The notes under the pieces were generated by a model. That model did no database searches, was not told the origin of the DNA, and saw nothing but the letters and a program-made list of their open reading frames with translations. The translations under genes were made by a program, and so were the position numbers. Of a stretch of 47,980 nucleotides of DNA, positions 1 through 47,980 are shown one piece after another (within the stretch, counting starts at the first letter, position 1; each line of letters starts with the position of its first letter). The DNA lies in NCBI GenBank assembly GCA_027923505.1, contig BROI01000002.1, forward strand, positions 2,728,001 to 2,775,980. The letters are read 5' to 3'. Source of the stretch: Mayamaea pseudoterrestris. Lineage: Eukaryota.

Positions 1-2228
1 CGCGAACGTGTCACGCGCGTGAAGCCCTCTTCGTCGTCACTGTCTTCGTCGTCTTCGTCGCGCGACAACAAGTCCGGTACGTCGTCCTCGTCGTCATCGT
101 CATCCGAAGAGTCATAGTCGTCGTCCTCGGTCGGCTCGACGTCAAACTCATTCGGATCCCAAGGTCCATCGAAGGTCATCATGACCCGAGGTAAGGTGTG
201 AAGCTCATGCGCCGACACTGGAAACATTGGCAAGGTCGCCATGCCACTTTCCATCCCGAGCATAAACTTGTATCCATCTGGCGTTTCGATTCGTAACTTG
301 CCACCAAAGTTGTAATGCTTGTCGTTGACATGAAGTCCGAAGGCTTCCATCTGCATACTCGAATGAATCGTCTTGCCGGTTCCAGAATATGCGTAATTAT
401 GGAACTCGCCGACGACCCAACCCTTGGTGCTCTTAAGCTTGGCGACTGCTGTGACGGTAGACAGGTCCGGAAGTTTGAGACCACCGACTCCAGTGACTTC
501 AATCTTGTGGAACTTGTCCTCGGTAAGGATGCGGCCGTCCGCTCCCCATACTCCGCCACTCGCGCCGCGATCGACAGTCGACGCTGAATGCTTATCCAAG
601 TCAATGCTCGCGACTTTGTACTTGCGACTCTGAGCGATATTCGCTCCCCGAGTCGTAGTCGTGGGCTGGTCTGGACCTAAGAAACTTCGCATCGCTGAGC
701 CACGGCTGGTGTTGTTCACACGCTCAGTCGCTGCACTCGCCGTCGTTGCCGCTGATGAAGTGGCTGCGACGTTTGCGTTGCGTGTTGTACTCGTCGTCTG
801 CGTGGTGCCTGCCTGTGTTGCTGATGTCGAACCACCTGCAGCACTGGCCGCTCGACTCGTACCACGGCGTTCAAACACTTCATGTTGCTGATCGCGGGTA
901 AGGAGTCGCCACGTGTTTGGTGGAATCGTCGCATTCACGTCGCTGGGGATTTCGATCGTCTTCGTGTCGGCATAGCTGCGAACATACGTACGAGTATCTC
1001 CCCGACCGCGGCCGCTGCCGCCGCCTCGTCCTGTGCTCAAGTCGCCGCGACCACCGCCCCCCTGACTGGATTGCTGATTGTTGCTGCTACTTGGCGTAGA
1101 CTGGGAATTGTTCGCGCTTGCCTTCTTCGTCTTCTCCTTCTCTTTCTTGGTCTGCTCAGATTGGTTCGCCTGACGCTTCTCGGTCTCCTTGATGCCACGA
1201 CGATTGTCAGATTGACGTGCGACGTCGTTCAGGAGGTTCCAAAACTGGGTGTACGCCATCGGGTTGCCGGTCTTGGACTCTTCGATCAGCGCCATGTTCA
1301 CCGCCGCTGCCATATCCGCATGGCGGAAAACCGCGCGTTCCAAAATCTGACGCTTCGTGCTTGCTGTAAGTAGCTCGGTTTCCTCGGCGTAGTCATTGTA
1401 GTTCTCTTCCTTGCTGGACCACTGGATAAGCCAATTGACGAGAGACTTGGCGTAACCCGCGTCGAGGGTGAAGTTGCGCCATTCGTCTTCGGCCGAACGT
1501 AGATCCAACTTGCGCGCCATCCCGTCGAGGAATGTCGCCTCCAACTCTGCAATGCACGCTGAGGCATTCGCGCTGTCGATGTGCTTGCGGACAATGAGCT
1601 TGCTCTGCGGAGTCTTGCAGGTATACTCGAGCGCCGCTAAAAGCTTCGAACACTGATACTGATACTCGGCGAATTCGGGCTCGAGTGCAGCTGGTGCCTT
1701 GAACTCGTCGTCCCAAAAGTAGCCAAGTCGCTCGCTTCGCATGCGGTTATTGAAGGCCCGCCAGTAGGAGCAGAACTTGCGATCGTTCTTAAGCTCCAGC
1801 ATGGTCTTCAGATCCAGCTTGATGTCATGTCGCTTCGTCGTGTTGTCGTTGCCTCCGATAACGCTGAAGTCTCCGAAACTGCGGTTGCCTGCGGTCGGTG
1901 ACCCCGGTGCTACTGGGAGGTCTCGGCTCGTAATCTGGTCTTTCTCCAAGTCTTGCCATTGCGCAGTCGTCCGACGTTGCTCGTGAATCCAACTCATGAG
2001 CTTGCGCAATCGGCTTGTTCGTATCGTCGACCACTGGTACTGGTTCTTAATGTTCGTCACGTCTTGTTCCGACAACTCGGCCATCGCCTCCGCAGTCGTG
2101 AGTTCCTCGGATTCGAAGCATACTGCGGTAGGGTCGTTTGGGTCCCAAGCTGCGGACGCTGCGAGCCACGGAATATCGAAGACTTTACCGACGGCACGCT
2201 TGTAGGTCGTTACATCAATCGTCGTCAT
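1..2228 (-). CDS. Gag-protease part of the element A polyprotein (partial, runs off the window)
   Basis: ATG at 2228 (MTTIDVTTYK...), same sequence as the N-terminal part of the 1816-aa ORF, including the protease motif VDRGA. Confidence 0.9.
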   Translation of the reverse strand, partial: MTTIDVTTYKRAVGKVFDIPWLAASAAWDPNDPTAVCFESEELTTAEAMAELSEQDVTNIKNQYQWSTIRTSRLRKLMSWIHEQRRTTAQWQDLEKDQITSRDLPVAPGSPTAGNRSFGDFSVIGGNDNTTKRHDIKLDLKTMLELKNDRKFCSYWRAFNNRMRSERLGYFWDDEFKAPAALEPEFAEYQYQCSKLLAALEYTCKTPQSKLIVRKHIDSANASACIAELEATFLDGMARKLDLRSAEDEWRNFTLDAGYAKSLVNWLIQWSSKEENYNDYAEETELLTASTKRQILERAVFRHADMAAAVNMALIEESKTGNPMAYTQFWNLLNDVARQSDNRRGIKETEKRQANQSEQTKKEKEKTKKASANNSQSTPSSSNNQQSSQGGGGRGDLSTGRGGGSGRGRGDTRTYVRSYADTKTIEIPSDVNATIPPNTWRLLTRDQQHEVFERRGTSRAASAAGGSTSATQAGTTQTTSTTRNANVAATSSAATTASAATERVNNTSRGSAMRSFLGPDQPTTTTRGANIAQSRKYKVASIDLDKHSASTVDRGASGGVWGADGRILTEDKFHKIEVTGVGGLKLPDLSTVTAVAKLKSTKGWVVGEFHNYAYSGTGKTIHSSMQMEAFGLHVNDKHYNFGGKLRIETPDGYKFMLGMESGMATLPMFPVSAHELHTLPRVMMTFDGPWDPNEFDVEPTEDDDYDSSDDDDDEDDVPDLLSRDEDDEDSDDEEGFTRVTRS

Positions 2229-2317
2229 GGTGGAGGTTGATCAGAGGAATCGGACTCGCTGCAGACGAATGTGTCACAATAGCTCCCTCGCTCGTTCTCG
2301 CTCTCAAAGCACTGAAA

Positions 2318-2720
2318 TGTTAATCTAACACCGTTGACGATTTCGCAGTCAACGTCTTACCTCCAAAAAGCTCCGATACAGGGTCCTTGGCCACGGTCTG
2401 TACAGCTCTTGATGGAGATGGCTCGTCGAATAGTCTTGCGCTCGCCACTACACGAATACGACTGCACTCTCGTCGCAAACTAGTAGTTCTATATTGTGAG
2501 CTTATCGCTACATCGCTACATCGACCACTCGGAAGATCATCCGATCAATCCGTTTCTTTCAATCACATTACATCAGTCGTAACTGGTCGTTCCATTCATA
2601 CAACGCATCCACACGACGGTTGCGCACTTTCTTCATTCACATGTCACATACGACAGCTGCGGACTCGACACAAGCTAATTAGGGTTCGGGCTCTTGACTT
2701 CGCCGCTCTGCGACTTGTCA
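2318..2720 (-). repeat. 5' LTR of element A copy 1 (403 bp, TGACAAG...GATTAACA on the minus strand)
   Basis: Direct repeat of 9028-9430 and 2726-3112, with TG...CA termini. The internal boundary at 2318 is inferred from the TG/CA rule because the 3' LTR copy is clipped there. Confidence 0.85.
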
Positions 2721-2725
2721 ATATG

Positions 2726-3112
2726 AACACCGTTGACGATTTCGCAGTCAACGTCTTACCTCCAAAAGCTTCGATACAGGGTCTTGGCCACGGTCTGTAC
2801 AGCTCTTGATGGAGATGGCTCGTCGAATAGTCTTGCGCCCGCCACTACACGAATCCGACTGCACTCTCGTCGCAAACTAGTAGTTCTATATTGTGAGCTT
2901 ATCGCTCCGCTACATCGACCATCGAAGATCATCCGATCAATCCGTTTCTTTCAATCACATTACATCAGTCGTAACTGGTCGTTCCATTCATACAACGCAT
3001 CCACACGTCGGTTGCGCACTTTCTTCATTCACATGTCACATACGACAGCTGCGGACTCGACACAAGCTAATTAGGGTTCGGGCTCTTGACTTCGCCGCTC
3101 TGCGACTTGTCA
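2726..3112 (-). repeat. 3' LTR of element A copy 2 (lacks ~9 terminal bp; several small differences from the 5' LTR)
   Basis: Homologous to 2327-2720 and net 7 nt shorter. Starts TGACAAG on the minus strand directly after the polypurine tract. Confidence 0.9.
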
Positions 3113-6100
3113 CTCCCCTCGGGTACGCTGCTCGTCGTAGCCGCATTCTTGTCCTTCACAATCGCATACGATGTATCGCCGCACCAAAACAATACTGGCT
3201 TGAGCAATGGCATCGCATCACAGTACGGCAGGTACTTCGTCAGTATCGTCCGCAATGTTCTCCTTTCCGTCAATCTTCACAACTTGAGTAATCCGCAGCA
3301 ACTGCCCAACGAACACGATGGTAGGCCAACGCATTGTGTCGCTTGGACAATGTCCGAACTCAGGATTGTAGATTGTGTAATCACTGCTTGGTTGTCTCCG
3401 TACATCCAGGCAGACTTCTCCAATGGCGTACGCCCATAGCCATGAGCGATGCGCGTCGAGAAATGCTGATATCCGTTCCACTCTTTGCTACCGCCGACTT
3501 CCGATCCGGGTCGCAGTCTCGACTGTGGCCTGGAGTTTGCAATGCCAGTCGATTGGCGTTCTGGTTGACAAATGACAAAAAACTCCTTCCAATGACTTGC
3601 CTGTCACCATGCAATCCATGAGCACGCATCCTCGAAAGTTGATGTTCGTACAGTCACACCCTTTGGCGGTGGGTGCAGACGTCCAACATCTCATCAACTC
3701 CGTCCTTCCCGTGAACGCTGCGCTCCAATCTTGTTCCTCCATGGTGCCGAAGTGCTCCTCGTTGGCTCCGTTCGTACGGAAACGGATTGCTGCGTCCGGT
3801 AACTCTCGCAAATATCCACAGACTCGCTTCACCCGCTGCAGGTGTCCCTTGCGCGGCTCCACACGGAATCGCGACAGACTCACAACTGCTACGGCAATGT
3901 CAAATCGTCCCAAAGTAATCGCCCACTGAAGTGCTCCGACTAGAGACTGGTAAATCTTCTTCTCTTGGTCGTTCAGTAGCTCGCTTTGGTCAAGTTCGGG
4001 ATGATCGTCTTTGTCGATTGGTGATGAATACTTCTTCGGAGGACCTTCAAACAACCGCTCGTACTGCGCCAAGAGTTTCGCAACGTAGGTCTTGGCCGAC
4101 CAGTAAAGAGTTCCATCAGGGTCTCGTCCAAAGTCACCGCCGAGATGATACTCGGGATGTCCAACACCTTTGAGCTTAAACTTGTACTTCTCCTCTAGCA
4201 TCTTGAAGAACGCTGCTGGATCGTCTGAAATATTCAACAGATCGTCGACCCATACACAGAGGTAGTCGTAGCTGTCGCCGGCGTCCTTGATCCACAGATC
4301 GGAATCGCAATAGGACGGCTTCCACCCTTCCGCAAGTAGGGCGTCGGCTAAGCGTTCGTGAAATCGTGCTCCGCTCGTTCGCAATCCGTACAAAGCCTTG
4401 ACGATGACCAGGATGTGTCCTTCGCGCTCCCCGAACTCGGGGCCTCCAACGAAGTATACCTTCTCCTTGGTGAACGCTTCGAGATAAGCATTCCCAATGT
4501 CACCGACCATGCACTTCTTGCCGTTCGCTTCTCCAATGACGAGAGCTAGACGCATTGCCTTCAATGAGATAACACTGGAGTAGGCATCGTCGTTGTCTTT
4601 CGTCATGTGGCCGCCTGCAACGAGACGTGCCTTGTATCGCAAATCGTGCTTGACATCGTACACAAAATGGACTCGGATCTTCTGGTAACCAGTTGGTGGT
4701 GTTGTGGTGGAACTCGGACCGAGATCTTGAAACGTCTCGTACTCGTCCAGGTTCGCAAGCTCCACGCCTTCTGCATCCGTCCACTTCGTGTGTCCTGCAG
4801 CTTCTTGTAGACGTCGCGCTTCCTTCCAATCTCGGGGTACTTGGACTCCAAACTTGTAGCGCGGTCCGTTCTTCTGCTGCTCCATTCGGGCGATCGCCAC
4901 CTTGCGCGCAACCTTCTTGGCGTTCCGGGCCCATCGATTCAACGATGTCCATCCGTCCTTGTCGAGAAGATTATGCTTTTGCGCGTAGGCTGCCACTGAT
5001 ACTTTGTCGCTTTCGATCATCGCGTTGAGAGGCTCCCAAGTCTTGGATCCATCGTCCCATTGTACAAGGACGTTCCACTTGGAGTGCTTCCAGTTCTTCG
5101 ACTTGCTCGTCAGCGGACCCTGATGGTCTAGAATCTCCTTGAAGAACCATTTACGCTCAGGATTCGCCATGTCTTGGTTCACTTCGGCCTCGTAGAGATC
5201 GGAAACCTCGACATACGACATGATTTCGTCCGCTTCGCCGTTGCCAAGCTTCAGCATCATTTTAATGTTCTGATGGTTCTGGGCGTCGCGGTTGTTCAGC
5301 TTGCTCATGACGGTCGCTCGAACTTCTTGCCCGTCGTCCGTCTTCATGAGAAACGACTTGCCGATAAGTTCATCGGGTGCATACTTCGGGAGTTTGCGCC
5401 ACGGATTGATGTTCTTCTTCTTCGGCTTGTCGTCGTCGTCATCGTCATCGGCAGGATTCGGATCTAGCTCCCCGTCGGTCATATCGTCGTCTTCCGGGTA
5501 TTCCACCGTCTCGACCAAAGGGGTATCGTCTTCGTCAGGAATGAAAGAATCATCGTCTCTGCTGTCGGCGTCGGTAATCTTCTTGATCATTTCCGGCATA
5601 AGGATCTCGCCACCTAGACCAGGTACGGTATAGAGACGCGGCTCCCCTTCTTTCATGACTGGGGAAGCAGGTGCCGGTACGCGAAGGTTCAAAAATTTTG
5701 GGTCATTTCGGGGTAAGCAAACCGATCGCGTCATGATCTCGTGGGTCTCGCAATCACAGATGAAGTACGTCAGGTCGTCTCCGCACGTCGTGTTGGGACC
5801 AAGCCAGTACGCCGCGCGCTGGCGGGTACCCGGGGCCTCGACATCCTTGACAAAGTAGTTGACAATTTCAAACCAACGAAAATGCAAATACTTCGACACG
5901 TCGGGGACTTGCCCAGTGATAAACTCGATGGGAGACTTGCCGTCCAAGGCAGGATGCGACAAATGACGGTACATCTCGGTCTGAAAGAGTAAAGCGCGTA
6001 GCCAGAAGCATGCCGGAGTGCCTGTTCGGTCCATAAGTCGTTCATGACTTTCCTTGACGTGTCCGATGATGCGCTCGGCTGGATTTTGATTCTGGTAGTA

Positions 6101-8938
6101 CGGCTCCGATGTATGACGACGGCGAATCATGAACTCGCGCATTACTTCGTCAAACTCGGCACTCATCGCTTCTTTCGCATTATCCGAGAAGACTTCCAAC
6201 GGAGCTCCAAACTCGCGGATGAAATCACGGAATCGTTTCGGTACGTCACCTTTCGTCCGCATGGGATACACGACAATGATCTGACTGCGACAGCCATAGA
6301 ATAGCTGCACGCATGTGCACCCTGCATGTCCGTCGATATGATCATCCATGGCTGGTTCGTCGAAGAACATGGTGTCATGGGCCACTCGATCATCTAGACG
6401 GTAGACGTTCAGGAATCGGCTCTTTCGATGCATTCGTGGGGGGTATCGGCGCTCGTGCATGTTGAACTGCGTGCTGTGGCGCAAAGTATCCTTGATCGTC
6501 TGCGCCGGGTACCATGCAAAGTTCGGCAGCAATGCGTCGATATCAGGTTTCTTTGGCAGGATAGACTTGTAGGGCTGATAGACGAGATCCGCATTGTACT
6601 TCTGTACGACGGCACAAACATTCAGCTCCTTCTCGGTGTAAACAGGTTGATTGTCGTGTCCGAGATTCGTATACGTCACGTTGCTTTGACGATGGGTGCG
6701 ATTCCGCGTACGCGAACGTGTCACGCGCGTGAAGCCCTCTTCGTCGTCACTGTCTTCGTCGTCTTCGTCGCGCGACAACAAGTCCGGTACGTCGTCCTCG
6801 TCGTCATCGTCATCCGAAGAGTCATAGTCGTCGTCCTCGGTCGGCTCGACGTCAAACTCATTCGGATCCCAAGGTCCATCGAAGGTCATCATGACCCGAG
6901 GTAAGGTGTGAAGCTCATGCGCCGACACTGGAAACATTGGCAAGGTCGCCATGCCACTTTCCATCCCGAGCATAAACTTGTATCCATCTGGCGTTTCGAT
7001 TCGTAACTTGCCACCAAAGTTGTAATGCTTGTCGTTGACATGAAGTCCGAAGGCTTCCATCTGCATACTCGAATGAATCGTCTTGCCGGTTCCAGAATAT
7101 GCGTAATTATGGAACTCGCCGACGACCCAACCCTTGGTGCTCTTAAGCTTGGCGACTGCTGTGACGGTAGACAGGTCCGGAAGTTTGAGACCACCGACTC
7201 CAGTGACTTCAATCTTGTGGAACTTGTCCTCGGTAAGGATGCGGCCGTCCGCTCCCCATACTCCGCCACTCGCGCCGCGATCGACAGTCGACGCTGAATG
7301 CTTATCCAAGTCAATGCTCGCGACTTTGTACTTGCGACTCTGAGCGATATTCGCTCCCCGAGTCGTAGTCGTGGGCTGGTCTGGACCTAAGAAACTTCGC
7401 ATCGCTGAGCCACGGCTGGTGTTGTTCACACGCTCAGTCGCTGCACTCGCCGTCGTTGCCGCTGATGAAGTGGCTGCGACGTTTGCGTTGCGTGTTGTAC
7501 TCGTCGTCTGCGTGGTGCCTGCCTGTGTTGCTGATGTCGAACCACCTGCAGCACTGGCCGCTCGACTCGTACCACGGCGTTCAAACACTTCATGTTGCTG
7601 ATCGCGGGTAAGGAGTCGCCACGTGTTTGGTGGAATCGTCGCATTCACGTCGCTGGGGATTTCGATCGTCTTCGTGTCGGCATAGCTGCGAACATACGTA
7701 CGAGTATCTCCCCGACCGCGGCCGCTGCCGCCGCCTCGTCCTGTGCTCAAGTCGCCGCGACCACCGCCCCCCTGACTGGATTGCTGATTGTTGCTGCTAC
7801 TTGGCGTAGACTGGGAATTGTTCGCGCTTGCCTTCTTCGTCTTCTCCTTCTCTTTCTTGGTCTGCTCAGATTGGTTCGCCTGACGCTTCTCGGTCTCCTT
7901 GATGCCACGACGATTGTCAGATTGACGTGCGACGTCGTTCAGGAGGTTCCAAAACTGGGTGTACGCCATCGGGTTGCCGGTCTTGGACTCTTCGATCAGC
8001 GCCATGTTCACCGCCGCTGCCATATCCGCATGGCGGAAAACCGCGCGTTCCAAAATCTGACGCTTCGTGCTTGCTGTAAGTAGCTCGGTTTCCTCGGCGT
8101 AGTCATTGTAGTTCTCTTCCTTGCTGGACCACTGGATAAGCCAATTGACGAGAGACTTGGCGTAACCCGCGTCGAGGGTGAAGTTGCGCCATTCGTCTTC
8201 GGCCGAACGTAGATCCAACTTGCGCGCCATCCCGTCGAGGAATGTCGCCTCCAACTCTGCAATGCACGCTGAGGCATTCGCGCTGTCGATGTGCTTGCGG
8301 ACAATGAGCTTGCTCTGCGGAGTCTTGCAGGTATACTCGAGCGCCGCTAAAAGCTTCGAACACTGATACTGATACTCGGCGAATTCGGGCTCGAGTGCAG
8401 CTGGTGCCTTGAACTCGTCGTCCCAAAAGTAGCCAAGTCGCTCGCTTCGCATGCGGTTATTGAAGGCCCGCCAGTAGGAGCAGAACTTGCGATCGTTCTT
8501 AAGCTCCAGCATGGTCTTCAGATCCAGCTTGATGTCATGTCGCTTCGTCGTGTTGTCGTTGCCTCCGATAACGCTGAAGTCTCCGAAACTGCGGTTGCCT
8601 GCGGTTGGTGACCCCGGTGCTACTGGGAGGTCTCGGCTCGTAATCTGGTCTTTCTCCAAGTCTTGCCATTGCGCAGTCGTCCGACGTTGCTCGTGAATCC
8701 AACTCATGAGCTTGCGCAATCGGCTTGTTCGTATCGTCGACCACTGGTACTGGTTCTTAATGTTCGTCACGTCTTGTTCCGACAACTCGGCCATCGCCTC
8801 CGCAGTCGTGAGTTCCTCGGATTCGAAGCATACTGCGGTAGGGTCGTTTGGGTCCCAAGCTGCGGACGCTGCGAGCCACGGAATATCGAAGACTTTACCG
8901 ACGGCACGCTTGTAGGTCGTTACATCAATCGTCGTCAT
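3067..8938 (-). CDS. Gag-Pol polyprotein of element A; open to ~3730, RNase H region frameshifted, true stop probably at 3067 inside the 3' LTR
   Basis: 1816-aa ORF 3488-8938 has protease VDRGA, integrase D-D-E (VAHDT, FSDNA, NPAER), a chromodomain-like block (EILDH...LVQW...TWEP) and RT (KARLVAGGH, KALYGL, VWVDDLL). RNase H motifs (TPIDWHCKLQATVETAT, GDNQAV, ENIAD, TKYLP) are split across frames and end ...PEGSDKSQSGEVKSPNPN*. Confidence 0.93.
3113..3120 (-). promoter_or_regulatory. Polypurine tract (plus-strand primer) of element A
   Basis: GAGGGGAG immediately precedes TGACAAG of the 3' LTR on the minus strand. Confidence 0.85.
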
Positions 8939-9027
8939 GGTGGAGGTTGATCAGAGGAATCGGACTCGCTGCAGACGAATGTGTCACAATAGCTCCCTCG
9001 CTCGTTCTCGCTCTCAAAGCACTGAAA

Positions 9028-9430
9028 TGTTAATCTAACACCGTTGACGATTTCGCAGTCAACGTCTTACCTCCAAAAAGCTCCGATACAGGGTCCTTGG
9101 CCACGGTCTGTACAGCTCTTGATGGAGATGGCTCGTCGAATAGTCTTGCGCTCGCCACTACACGAATACGACTGCACTCTCGTCGCAAACTAGTAGTTCT
9201 ATATTGTGAGCTTATCGCTACATCGCTACATCGACCACTCGGAAGATCATCCGATCAATCCGTTTCTTTCAATCACATTACATCAGTCGTAACTGGTCGT
9301 TCCATTCATACAACGCATCCACACGACGGTTGCGCACTTTCTTCATTCACATGTCACATACGACAGCTGCGGACTCGACACAAGCTAATTAGGGTTCGGG
9401 CTCTTGACTTCGCCGCTCTGCGACTTGTCA
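9028..9430 (-). repeat. 5' LTR of element A copy 2
   Basis: Identical by eye to 2318-2720 and flanked on the right by ATATG plus satellite. Confidence 0.88.
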
Positions 9431-10289
9431 ATATGACTTAAAAGTAGATGGACCTCACTCATTTAGCGGAACACATTGGACTTGATAGGTGGATGGACCT
9501 CGCTCATTGAGCGGGAACACATTGGACCTGAAATTGGATGGAACTCACTTATCTAGCAGTAGTGCATTGGACTTGAAAGTGGATGGGCCTCACTCATGTA
9601 GTGGACTTGATAGGTGGATGGACCTCACTCAATTAGCGGGTACACCTTCAACTTGATAGGTGGATGGACCTCACTCATTTAGCGGGAACACATTAAACTT
9701 GAAAGTGGGATGGACCAAACTTATTTTGCGGGACGCATTGGACTTGAAAGTGGATGGACCTCACTCATTTAGTGGGAACACATATGACTTAAAAGTAGAT
9801 GGACCTCACTCATTTAGCGGAACACATTGGACTTGATAGGTGGATGGACCTCGCTCATTGAGCGGGAACACATTGGACCTGAAATTGGATGGAACTCACT
9901 TATCTAGCAGTAGTGCATTGGACTTGAAAGTGGATGGGCCTCACTCATGTAGTGGACTTGATAGGTGGATGGACCTAACTCAATTAGCGGGTACACCTTG
10001 GACTTGATAGGTGGATGGACCTCACTCATTTAGCGGGAACACATTGGACTTGAAAGTGGATGGAACTCACTTATTTAGCGGTAGTGCATTGGACTTGAAA
10101 GTAGATGGGCCTCACTCATGTAGTGGACTTGATAGGTGGATAGACCTCACTCAACTAACGGGAACACCTTGGACTTGATAGGTGGATGGACCTCACTCAT
10201 TTAGCGGGAACACATTAAACTTGATAGTGGATGGACCTTACTCATTTAGCTAGATACATTGGACTTGAAAGTGGATGGACCTCACTTAT
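9431..10289. repeat. Tandem satellite/minisatellite, ~45-bp monomer, about 20 copies, with 171-bp and 351-bp higher-order periods
   Basis: Consensus approximately TTGGACTTGA(A/T)AG(G)TGGATGGACCTCACTCATTTAGCGGGAACACA. A short variant monomer ending CATGTAG recurs at 9595, 9946 and 10117. Confidence 0.95.
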
Positions 10290-10590
10290 AACCATGACAT
10301 TATTTGCTATAATATTACTAGCACAGGATGCTCACTTGTAGCATGTTACTTGCGAGACAGATGTTAATGTCTCATGTGACATATGGGATTCCGATGGGTT
10401 CTGCATGTTGAAGTTTCATTATAGTAGTCGTAGAAAGTGAGTCACAGACTGACAGACACAACATTTTTTATACTCACTGTACCCTACGGGTCAGTGATTC
10501 ATTCATTCATCCTGCTCTCGTAGGTACCGAGTCTGTGTGTCACAAGTAAGCATTAATTACAATAGAAGGCAAACAAGGGAAGCTAACGTC

Positions 10591-43582: not shown

Positions 43583-44294
43583 TGTGCTAGCGTTGATTGG
43601 TATCAAAATAAGGAGGTACGGACAGCTTTTGCTTCGGCTGCTGCTTTCAGCTTTGTAGCGTAGCGGTGTGGCGACGTGACTTCGCTTCGCAGGATCATGG
43701 ATCATGCGAGGTGCCACTGCAGCCAAAAGGCTTCACAGTGGTGGTCACCATAACCTGCACAACTTTAGAATCGATAATTAGGGATTTCATCATATAGTAC
43801 TTAACGATACGAGTCAGGAATGACCCTCATTACCTCGGCAACCTCATGGTATCGATAGATAGATATGATTCAAGGTACCAATTTGTGGTTTTCGGTTGAC
43901 ATGATGCGACATCTGGGACCTGATTTACATCATTTCATCATTACATCAGCACCTTGAGGGTTTATACAAATGGATCGTCATGTTTGTAGCTTTTCAGCAC
44001 TTGTCGTTCCTTGGTTATTGCTGGTTGGTGAATCGGTACAATTTTAGCGATGCGAAACACGCTTGTGAAAAGTGGCGGAACGAGTCCCGCTTGCAAAAAT
44101 CCTGCACAACAGCTGGCGCACCTCTAGATGTGCCGAAGCGATTCTTGCGAAACTTGGCCACCATATTCTTTAAGCCTAGCTCTATCCATTGCTAGGTTTA
44201 TAGGAGAAAATATCATTGGCTTCGGGACTTATGTCCGTTTGTGCAGGTTATGGTGACCACCACTGTCAGATCTTGCATGCTTCTCCGCACATTC

Positions 44295-44649
44295 TGTGGA
44301 TTTACTATCCAGTTTAGTGTACGTCGTACAGCCGGCAATACCCAATCGCAGGCTTTTCACAAAGAAAATGACACCTGCCTTTGAAATGTCGCATCACGAT
44401 CGCACCACCAAACGACGACAGAAACGCGCATCGCGCAAACGTCGCTCATCGATCAAACTGTTGAGCATGGATGAGAACCCAAACCGAAGCGGCAGCGGTG
44501 ACGTCACGAAGACGGTCACATTTAAGTAAGCGCGGTAAGCGGCAACCGAAGGAGTGGATCGAGGACGATCACTTCTTGGAGAAAATAAGTAAAGTGGTTT
44601 TATTGACTCTGTCTGCTAATCAGTGTGCCAAGGCGCGTTAAATCCAACA
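44295..44649 (+). repeat. Putative 5' LTR of element B (~355 bp)
   Basis: Begins TGTGGATTTA and ends TAAATCCAACA (terminal inverted repeat with a 1-nt gap, TG...CA), 27 nt upstream of the gag ATG. The second LTR is outside the window, so the boundaries are inferred. Confidence 0.7.
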
Positions 44650-44676
44650 TTTTCTCCAAGAAGCGAGTGAAAAGAC

Positions 44677-47600
44677 ATGTCTTCGACGAGCAATACTCCG
44701 ACGACAGGAGCGGCGTCGAGCGGTGGAGGTGCACCTCCCGCTCCGCCAGCAAGCGAAGGAAACCGACGCAACCGTCATTATCGTCGTGGGAATCGTGCTG
44801 GGAATCGTTCCGGGAATCAAGGCAATGGTAACAGACTCAACGGACCGAGTCGTGCGCCGAGTGGAAATTTCCAAGGAAGCGAGCCGACGCTCGCTGGATT
44901 CATCTACGACTATAACGGTTCGCGCGATCCCGATGGATTCATCCGTACGACGAACGAGATCATCACTTTCGTCGGGCGCTCCTACAAGAAATATACCAAG
45001 GAGCTGCTCAAGGGCATGCGCAACGTGGAACTGGAGATTCCTGACGAGCCTGCACGTCCAACGAAGGATGCCGACACGACGGACTCGGACTGGTCCATAA
45101 TGCTCGAGGAATACAAGGCCGACAAGAAAGAGCATGTCGAGCGCGTGCGTGTATACTCCGACTTCCTCGCTGGTCTCTACGCCGTGTTGCATGGACAATG
45201 CACGGAGCGTATGAAGGATCGTGTCAAGTCGCACGCCAAGTTCCGAGACGCCGAGGAGGACACGGACGGAATTAAGTTGCTGGCGATTATCAAGGAGATC
45301 TCGCATACGTACGAAGGGCGCTGCAAACTTGTGGATCAAGTCGTGGACATTCAAGCTGAGTTGTTCGGACGTACTCAAGGAGCGCGCGAAAGCCTGCAGA
45401 AATATTACGAAAGCATGGTCACGCTGGCAGACGTGGCGAAGGCGGTTGGCGTCACGATGCACAACGAGATTGTGGCGTTGGAACATTGCCAAGGATGACA
45501 ATCGTAACAAGGCGAACAAGGAGGATATCAAGGCCGCCGAAGAGCTCGAGCTTGCGATGCTTTTCGTGCGTGGCGCAACGGGCGAATACGCCTGGTATTG
45601 CAAGCACTTGCGCAACTGCTACCTCGACGGGCACGACAACTTCCCGTTGACGATCCACGATGCATACAACATCATGCAGCGTCGTGAGCATGCGGATGGA
45701 GAAGCCACGTTGCCAACGAACGAGGGCGTGGCGTTTCACACGACTGGTACAGCGCGTGACCCTCCCAGATGCTGGACCCGTCAACAGGTTGGTCATGTGC
45801 AGCGAGACTGTCCTACGAGAACGGAGTCTACGGAGAGTGCGCCGGCTGCAGAGGCTAGTGGGGCGCAGCACTTCACGCTGGGTAGCGAGGAAGAAAGCGA
45901 TGACGACGATGAGGTCGGATACATGTTCGCGCAGCCGCCGAAGGTGAACATCTCGAAGAAGGCTGTGCTCTTGGACAATCAGTCGACAGTGGATCTGTTC
46001 TGCAACGCCAAGATGCTGACGAACATTCGCCCGGTGCCAACGTGGATGGTGATCAAGTGCAACGCTGGTACAGTAAGGACGAACATGATGGGCGACCTGG
46101 AGGGCTATGGTCCGGTGTGGTGGTATCCGCAGGGACTGGCGAACATTTTGAGTTTGGCGCAAGTCCGCAAGAAGTTTACCGTGGAGTATCTCATGCACGG
46201 CGTGGATCGTCCAATGTTCGTTGTGGAGAAGCCGGATGGTAAGCAGCGAGAGTTTGTCGAGACTGACTCTGGGCTGTATGTTTGCGAGAGCTTTTCGAAG
46301 GGCAAGCGCAGCGATGTCAAGGATGGAGTGGCGATGTTGACTACGGTAGACGATAACCGTACTAACTACACCAATGATGACTATTTACGCGCTGTTAGAG
46401 CTAGGAACTGCAAATCAAAATTGGACGGCCAAGCCTCAAGGATTATCTGCGCATTGTTAGTAGCAATCAGTTGCGGAACTGTCCTGTGACGAAGGCCGAC
46501 ATCCTGGCTGCTGAGCACATCTTTGGACCAGATGTTGGCTCGTTGAAGGAAAGACGACGCGTCGCGCGTCGCATCTGGTGAAGCCTGCGATTGTTGAGCA
46601 GCTTCCACCGGCTATCATGAGTCGCTATCGAGACGTTACTCTTTGTGCTGACATCATGTATATCAACAAAGTCCCTATGTTGGTGACGTTCTCCCGCAGC
46701 ATTCGTTTTGCTACGGTTGAGGTGATTCAAAACCGTACGCTTCCGGTTATGTTGAAGGCAATCGAGTCTGTGTTGAAGATTTACGCACGCGGTGGGTTCC
46801 GTGTCGTCGCGGCTCTGATGGATGGGGAGTTCGCTCCAATGCTTGGCGCGTTGGCTGATCTCGGAGTGGCGCTCAATGCGACATCTGAGGATGAACACGT
46901 TGGCGAAATTGAACGTTTTATCCGTGTCGTGAAAGAACGGGTGCGCGCGACATACAACACGTTGCCATTTAAGCACGTGCCGGCACGCTTGGTTATCGAA
47001 ATGACGAAGTCTGCCGTGTTTTGTTGAATGCGTTTCCGAACGAGCGTGGCATTTCGAAGGATCTCAGTCCACGCACTATTGTGACTGGTCAGACAGTTGA
47101 CTTTAATCGGCATTGCAAGTATGAATTTGGTCAGTATGTGCAAACGCATGAGTCGCACAGCAATGACATGCAGGCGCGCACGATCGGTGCGCTGGCTCTG
47201 CGCCCGACTGGTAATGTGCAGGGTGGGTTTTATTTCCTCAGTTTGTCTTCGGGCAAAGTTCTGAATCGTGGGCACGCTACGCCTTTGCCCATGCCTGATG
47301 ATGTCATTGAGCGCGTGCATCGTCTCGCTCGTCAACAGAAGGCCAATCCGGCATCGTGTTATGGACCGCCACCGTGTTGCGGAGGCTGCTGAGCCAGTCA
47401 TGTGGCACGAAGATGACGCCGAGGATGATGATGACTCTGATTATGATGACGACGCTTCTCGCGGTGACGACGACTCTGCCGGCGGAAGCGAAGGAGTGAA
47501 TGCGACCGATGACGACGACGACGACGACGATGGTGCTGACGGCGCAATCGAAGGAGTGCTGAACTACGAGTATGGTGAGGCCATTGACGGCGAACGACGA

Positions 47601-47980
47601 CGCGCCAGCCGGGATGATGGCGAAATTCGAAGGAGTGCCCGATGAAGGCGAATTGAAGGAGTGCCAGCCGGCAGACGAAGAGGATTTCGATGCGCGTATG
47701 GCCCACGCTGGTCGGTATGGCCTGCGTGCGCGCAAACCTCGTCGTTCGCTCATTTGTTCAGCTCGACGTGCAGAGGAAGTGTCGGAGCCACTCGTCACGG
47801 CACAGAGAATATGCGACAAGGTTTAAAGGCTTTTGGCGATGCTGGAGGGAGGCAGTGCGCAAGGAATGCAGCAGCACACACAGGCACGTCGCGAAGGAGC
47901 CCAATCACTTGATCGAGCAGCGCAAGGATGCATTGATGTTTCGAGAGATGCGGACTGTGAAGGGACGCGGGCGGATGGAC
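44677..47980 (+). pseudogene. Gag-Pol of element B, broken by several frameshifts/stops (decay or consensus error)
   Basis: Consecutive ORF pieces 44677-45498, to 46489, 46578-47027 and 47021-47392 carry collinear gag, CCHC-like (CWTRQQVGHVQRDC), protease and integrase motifs. Confidence 0.85.

Follow-up and report, generated by a model that had tools for sequence, protein, structure and literature searches.

A putative Tf1-type self-priming layout in a diatom-associated Ty1/copia clade, with predicted transcript start and cleavage sites

Element B, an LTR retrotransposon at the right-hand end of the window (by which we mean the whole 47,980-nucleotide stretch of DNA analyzed here), most likely uses its own RNA as the primer for minus-strand DNA synthesis, in the manner of Tf1. 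Directly behind its 5' LTR lies a primer-binding site (PBS) that is the exact reverse complement of a segment inside that same LTR, and the arrangement recurs, with different sequences, in distant relatives. We describe this as a putative Tf1-type self-priming layout in a diatom-associated Ty1/copia clade, in which the transcript start and the cleavage site are predictions. Priming by tRNA is regarded as the norm among LTR retroelements, and, to our knowledge, self-priming has been proven only for Tf1 and predicted for a few lineages.

The proposed course of events is as follows (Table 1). Transcription would start right after the TCA at 44569 to 44571, and the first 14 nucleotides of the RNA (44572 to 44585) would fold back onto the PBS at 44650 to 44663, which lies immediately next to the LTR end. 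Cleavage of the RNase H type after A44585 would then leave a 3'-OH opposite T44650, from which reverse transcriptase would copy positions 44649 to 44586 into strong-stop DNA, with a predicted length of 64 nt, or of ~78 nt in the commoner form of the family. The plus strand would copy the retained primer, so that each cycle would renew the PBS from the LTR arm. Such renewal should keep the two arms perfectly complementary within an element yet different between elements; it would also predict perfect pairs free of G-U, a sharp outer edge at the predicted start, and concerted change from one element to the next. In the regeneration of the retroviral PBS, too, the plus strand copies the retained primer, and a 2006 paper by Atwood-Moore et al. 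reportedly bears, to go by its title, on renewal of the PBS from a retained primer.

Table 1. Features of element B in the window
Feature	Position	Strand	Basis
Possible 5-bp target-site duplication, CAAAC	44454..44458	+	5-bp duplications in relatives
5' LTR, 191 bp, TGTTG...CAACA	44459..44649	+	Run contigs and P0151 C terminus (start); 3' end predicted
Predicted U3, with the position of the pol stop codon (TAA, 44527-44529; used in the 3' LTR copy)	44459..44571	+	Predicted transcript start
Initiator-like TCA/CT; predicted start C44572 (or A44571)	44569..44573	+	Motifs
5' arm, predicted self-primer (first 14 nt of element RNA; predicted cut after A44585)	44572..44585	+	Repeat search, shuffles, relatives
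Rest of R-U5, 64 nt: fold-back loop and template of predicted minus-strand strong-stop DNA	44586..44649	+	Fold
PBS, exact reverse complement of 44572-44585	44650..44663	+	Same position relative to the LTR end in 43/80 related loci
gag-pol, with several frame changes; runs past the window end	44677..47980	+	ORFs; 97-99% identity to P0151

Coding sequence and classification

The open reading frame (ORF) at 45215 to 46489 has 3,412 relatives, the nearest of which, P0151 (97% identical), is a hypothetical protein of 1,477 aa from the diatom Mayamaea pseudoterrestris; further named relatives are from Nitzschia and Fragilaria. In Pfam, P0151 contains a zinc knuckle (zf-CCHC) at residues 223 to 238 and an RVT_2 domain at residues 968 to 1191 (60.3 bits against a cut-off of 31.6). 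Window positions 46515 to 47027 correspond to residues 482 to 641 of P0151, between these two domains, and the window stops short of the reverse transcriptase (RT) part of the element, the RVT_2 assignment being read from P0151. The ORFs of element B in the window gave no Pfam match at all and were not similar to element A, a second copia element of the window. Likewise, neither the window ORFs nor P0151 matched a Pfam integrase model, and a PDB sequence search with a relative, P0100, returned nothing. The putative order of pol in the family is protease (PR), an integrase-like region, and RT. Given the RVT_2 domain (in P0151), the TG...CA ends of the LTR, and the 5-bp target duplications found in three relatives (L010, L034, and L078), element B is classed, on its sequence features, as a Ty1/copia LTR retrotransposon of a diatom-associated clade.

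Limits of the LTR and state of the window copy

Nine public runs contain this stretch, none of them recorded as RNA, and the window was compared with contigs from four of them (X1, X3, X4, and X6). In all four, the element contigs match the window at ~99% beginning exactly at 44459, and in X4, X3, and X6 the letters preceding this position read ...AAAGGAGTG (...CTCGGCCCAAAGGAGTG in the longer reading), a polypurine-tract-like motif. The final 23 residues of P0151, in turn, are the translation of window positions 44458 to 44526 (21/23 identical). Since the run contigs and the P0151 C terminus are independent sources and agree, the start of the LTR (TGTTGAG) is fixed at 44459. In an intact copy, pol would cross the AGGAGTG tract, enter the 3' LTR, and stop at the TAA equivalent to 44527 to 44529; in the intact family member represented by P0151 (residues 1455 to 1477), this TAA sits 69 to 71 nt inside U3.

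The other end of the LTR had been placed at 44649 (...ATCCAACA) in the earlier note, and this placement is supported. Because the 3' LTR of the window copy falls beyond the window, we infer the position from the 5-bp terminal inverted repeat that it forms with the start (TGTTG...CAACA) and from relatives in which both LTRs end in CAACA. One contig from X1 is 4,945 nt long and circularly permuted, which fits an LTR-plus-internal unit of ~5.0 kb. Low-depth contigs in X1 and X3 follow the left flank up to 44458 and then continue into other sequence; the insertion is therefore absent from this site in part of the DNA sampled. The depth of the element contigs is 4 to 10 times that of the flank contigs. 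The insertion seems to be polymorphic and the family multi-copy.

The copy in the window is defective, its reading frame changing several times. Single-base indels relative to the runs were found at 45480, 46403, 47022, and 47628, all of them at or close to places where the frame shifts, and C45779, which gives Arg in the window, is a T in the runs, giving the zinc-knuckle Cys that is also present in P0151. In all four runs, moreover, the copies carry at least 14 extra letters between the arms, within 44611 to 44641, in the form of eight small insertions; this part of U5 may be damaged in the window copy. Among the differences listed for X6, none falls within 44459 to 44597 and none is a substitution in the PBS, with PBS indels leaving a small doubt. 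In summary, gag-pol of the window copy is broken and its priming signals are intact, and this copy offers no evidence of activity.

Paired arms at the LTR end

The claim from which this study departed, that the 14 nucleotides at 44650 to 44663 are the exact reverse complement of CTTCTTGGAGAAAA at 44572 to 44585 (plus strand), was borne out: these are the only two copies in the 47,980 bases of the window, and no further match to the 14-mer appeared there when one mismatch was allowed. The 5' arm stands in the context ...GATCA/CTTCTTGGAGAAAA/T... (44567 to 44586), and the PBS stands in the context ...ATCCAACA/TTTTCTCCAAGAAG/CGAGTGAAAAGAC/ATG (44642 to 44679). A repeat search delimited the arms as 44569 to 44586 and 44649 to 44666, complementary at 17 of 18 positions and spaced by 62 nt. 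As the earlier note had also held, T44586:A44649 adds a fifteenth pair to the duplex. At the opposite edge, A44571 lies unpaired across from C44664; the two further pairs that are possible beyond this mismatch are within chance expectation and would not be needed if transcription starts at 44572.

None of 100 dinucleotide shuffles matched the 14-mer. When the 191-nt LTR was shuffled 20,000 times and scored for its complement to the sequence beginning 0 to 5 nt past the LTR end, the longest complement was 11 nt, with none of 12 nt or more. Folding of the RNA from 44569 to 44680 placed the arm duplex as the closing helix of the minimum-energy structure (-31.1 kcal/mol; z = -3.42), and none of 200 shuffles was as stable. 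The distance from the LTR end to the gag ATG (44677) is 27 nt, of which 14 are taken up by the site at the PBS position; the remaining 13 nt leave no room in the window for a second primer site. Rfam gave no match within 44300 to 44800, and exact-pattern scans of the viral_contigs and genome_contigs sets gave none either.

Recurrence of the layout in related loci

Alignment of the ORF with 23 relatives led to 80 metagenome loci at 27 to 44% amino acid identity. Three of these (L010, L034, and L078) hold complete elements inside longer contigs, with both LTRs bounded by TGTTG...CAACA, flanking target duplications of 5 bp (ATTAC, GTGTG, and GAATC, respectively), and an AGGAG(T/C)G tract ahead of the 3' LTR. 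In each of them, the 14 nt past the 5' LTR are exactly complementary to a segment of the LTR, and these 14 nt were not found after the 3' LTR.

A blind search for inverted repeats (perfect arms of at least 12 nt; loop of 30 to 150 nt) was then run over the 80 loci and the window, 411 kb altogether. On the gene strand, 45 of the 62 perfect repeats found have an arm directly after CA, and 43 of these also have a TCA at the 5' arm; on the opposite strand, the same 62 repeats show the CA context four times and both contexts never. Counted by locus, a perfect site of 14 to 16 nt is present in 43 of the 80, namely, 41 from the blind search, L033, a circular contig whose junction falls within the site, and L046, in which the 5' arm is seen only in the 3' LTR. 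In 7 more loci, the site has one or two mismatches. The remaining 30 carry no weight for or against the layout. In 26 of them, the sequence upstream of the match is no longer than 1,355 nt, compared with a distance of 706 to 1,831 nt from the PBS end to the match in the positive loci; the other 4 are broken copies, with the ORF interrupted near the match.

Because perfect pairing was the search criterion, the sites are 100% paired by construction, and the independent evidence consists of their fixed position and their strand-specific flanking motifs. We tallied these for 43 perfect sites (42 loci plus the window; L046 is not among them). The site begins exactly at the LTR end in all 43, and this end reads CAACA in 41 and TAACA in 2. 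The sequences themselves are highly diverse, with 33 distinct 14-mers in which each of the 14 positions varies: two arms taken from different elements agree, on average, at 6.65 of the 14 positions, and the window arm agrees with the others at 3 to 10. MAFFT aligned the 3' arms in register and the 5' arms out of register, and pairs were therefore counted by script. In all 38 elements that were folded, the fold-back duplex closes the minimum-energy structure, and loop lengths range from 34 to 137 nt.

Absence of the pairing from relatives had been named in advance as an outcome that would speak against self-priming; the finding was the reverse, with 43 of 80 loci perfectly paired in 33 sequences that had changed on both sides. 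Among these relatives, the pairing is kept by changes in both arms. A search for relatives in viral_contigs found none, and among the loci there was no poly(A) end or poly(T) start (an A-run in L030 is internal), hence no transcript-like contig.

Subgroups of the relatives share further motifs. Seven loci (L007, L009, L010, L012, L035, L045, and L047) have in common a U5 hairpin, CTGTTG..TTATAGACACAG, as well as a CT(A/G)GTTT motif directly after the 5' arm; in other subgroups, TAG.GTG or ..ATATTGTAA occupies the latter position. These motifs may be further recognition or poly(A) signals.

Predicted transcript start

At 42 of the 43 tallied sites, a TCA (mostly CTCA) ends just before the 5' arm or supplies, with its A, the first base of the arm; by composition, TCA falls at one or the other of these two offsets at ~3.9% of positions. 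The distance from the TCA to the inner end of the arm, where the cut is predicted, measures 14 nt, with seven loci having 15 nt. A short initiator-like motif, TCAH+1W, has been proposed for the diatom Phaeodactylum from visual inspection, and starts mapped in its FCP genes lie at CAY+1A, according to the promoter passages of PMC4686930; for oomycetes, the initiator motif YCAYTYY has been described (PMC3599244). The conserved TCA matches these published stramenopile initiator motifs, and the predicted +1 in the window is C44572. An initiator-like TCAC with a start at or near A44571 had been suggested previously: the TCAC is indeed there (44569 to 44572), but perfect complementarity begins at C44572 rather than at A44571, both here and in most relatives.

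Weighing of alternative explanations

Self-priming is supported in that every sequence-based check (position of the site, pairing in relatives, and the TCA) came out as predicted. The first competing explanation sees in the fold-back a conserved RNA structure that serves a different purpose (packaging, dimerization, or control of gag translation, for instance) and assigns priming to something else, for example, a tRNA fragment with few pairs. We regard this as improbable. The duplex does end 13 nt before the gag ATG, so that an effect on translation is possible, and fungal GalEa copia elements have, in the passages of PMC5445492 that describe it, a conserved hairpin of unknown role at the PBS position; against this explanation, the site begins precisely at the LTR end in 43 of 43 cases. 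Selection on folding alone should, in addition, leave G-U pairs and mismatches, whereas in 43 of the 50 loci that show the layout the pairing is flawless for 14 nt or more, as copying of a primer predicts. As to the other primer, no single cellular molecule fits 33 different sequences, and in the window a second site would have no space. A tRNA in particular is unlikely as primer, judging from the sites themselves: of the 33 sequences, 31 have T as the first base of the PBS and 2 have C, and a TGG start, as would pair with a tRNA 3' end, occurs in none. There were no tRNA genes in the window or in the relatives' loci.

A second alternative retains tRNA-independent priming and moves it in trans, the 14-nt primer being supplied by a second, co-packaged element RNA or by a short LTR transcript. 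Every signal found here fits cis and trans equally, and sequence data cannot separate the two; we nonetheless consider priming in trans quite improbable, because the intramolecular duplex closes the minimum-energy structure in every one of the 38 elements folded, because the short loops (34 to 137 nt) favor fold-back, and because RNA structures in Tf1 bring the two regions together, as reported in the part of PMC7175516 that deals with them. Finally, a chance match or a local duplication-inversion without function, for which it might be said that the window holds a single copy of the family and a defective one, has a practically negligible probability and is refuted by the shuffles (0 of 20,000 reaching 12 nt), by the strand specificity of the flanking motifs (43 versus 0), and by the presence of the layout in 43 of 80 distant relatives with 33 different sequences.

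Relation to known elements

Self-priming by element B would most closely resemble that of Tf1. In Tf1, the PBS pairs with the 11 nt at the 5' end of the RNA, and an RNase H cut between nt 11 and 12 yields the primer, as set out in the priming sections of PMC7175516; in element B, the predicted cut likewise falls at the inner end of the duplex. A PBS beside the 5' LTR that is complementary to the element's own RNA start is shared with Tf1 and Tf2 of Schizosaccharomyces pombe and with the Tf1/sushi group, as described in the corresponding passages of PMC7175516 and PMC6317226. There are also differences. Tf1 is a Ty3/gypsy element, whereas element B belongs to another superfamily, with an RVT_2 reverse transcriptase and a putative pol order of PR, integrase-like region, and RT; the hosts of the element B family are diatoms rather than S. 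pombe; and the duplex comprises 14 to 15 nt against 11 nt in Tf1, for which the mechanism was shown experimentally (same sections of PMC7175516), whereas that of element B is predicted from sequence.

Outside Tf1 itself, self-priming has been predicted for the Tf1/sushi group and plant Tcn1 and, within Ty1/copia, for the plant TAR lineage, including Houba and Osr-1, in the portion of PMC6317226 that treats these lineages. The TAR elements belong to the same superfamily as element B, have land plants as hosts, and rest on the same sequence-based kind of prediction, a likeness that is drawn from the published description in PMC6317226. Fungal GalEa elements, known for their "Conserved Hairpin Site," are also copia elements without a tRNA-type PBS, and they have a structure at the PBS that includes the last A of the LTR. 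The passages of PMC5445492 on this site give a 9-bp palindrome and a nearby hairpin with no complement in U5, whereas the element B site has its partner within the LTR, where the RNA is predicted to begin. The diatom CoDi groups of Maumus et al. (2009) are similar to element B in being Ty1/copia elements with TG...CA LTRs, and their PR-IN-RT-RH order may be shared as well; primer-binding sites are not discussed in the main text of that paper (PMC2806351).

A full-text literature search, covering main texts, found no description of self-priming in diatom copia elements. This agrees with the earlier note; for the superfamily as a whole there is a precedent, self-priming in Ty1/copia having already been predicted for plant TAR. 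What the element B family adds is, by the evidence given here, a diatom clade to the Ty1/copia self-priming predictions, of a kind already known from TAR.

Element A and other repeats in the window

The second RVT_2 copia element in the window, element A, has an intact ORF of 1,820 aa (3488 to 8950, minus strand) and served as a negative control. No complement of 7 nt or more links its LTR to the bases that directly follow it, and the feature is thus specific to the lineage of element B. The region of element A (1 to 9430, minus strand) is a tandem array consisting of an LTR, an internal part, two adjacent 394-bp LTRs split by CATAT, and a second internal copy; window bases 1 to 300 equal 6711 to 7010. 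Its LTR ends in ...GGTGTT, not in CA, and an array of 45-bp tandem repeats (9424 to 10290) adjoins its 5' LTR.

Upstream of element B, a perfect 28-nt inverted repeat (43735 to 43762 and 44239 to 44266) encloses ~480 nt, and one X3 contig joins 43732 directly to 44266, skipping 533 nt. The segment from 43733 to 44265 looks like a polymorphic insertion with terminal inverted repeats, possibly a small DNA transposon.

Implications

We hold, more tentatively and with slightly less than even confidence, that self-priming could be standard for the whole of this widespread diatom-associated Ty1/copia clade, having arisen separately from Tf1/sushi and from plant TAR, with the first 14 to 15 nt of the RNA as primer and a PBS rewritten in each cycle. 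If this is true, the transcript start could be read, to the base, from the outer limit of the pairing, and evolution of the two arms would be concerted. The scheme makes precise predictions, testable in diatoms that can be cultured: a primer of 14 nt, cleavage after A44585, and strong-stop DNA of 64 or ~78 nt. Such elements would escape defenses based on tRNA fragments, as well as annotation tools that seek tRNA-type sites. The idea that early LTR elements were primed from a 5' hairpin has been mentioned before (PMC3601003), and the layout in the diatom clade bears on it. A large protist copia clade with a Tf1-type layout would widen the known range of self-priming.
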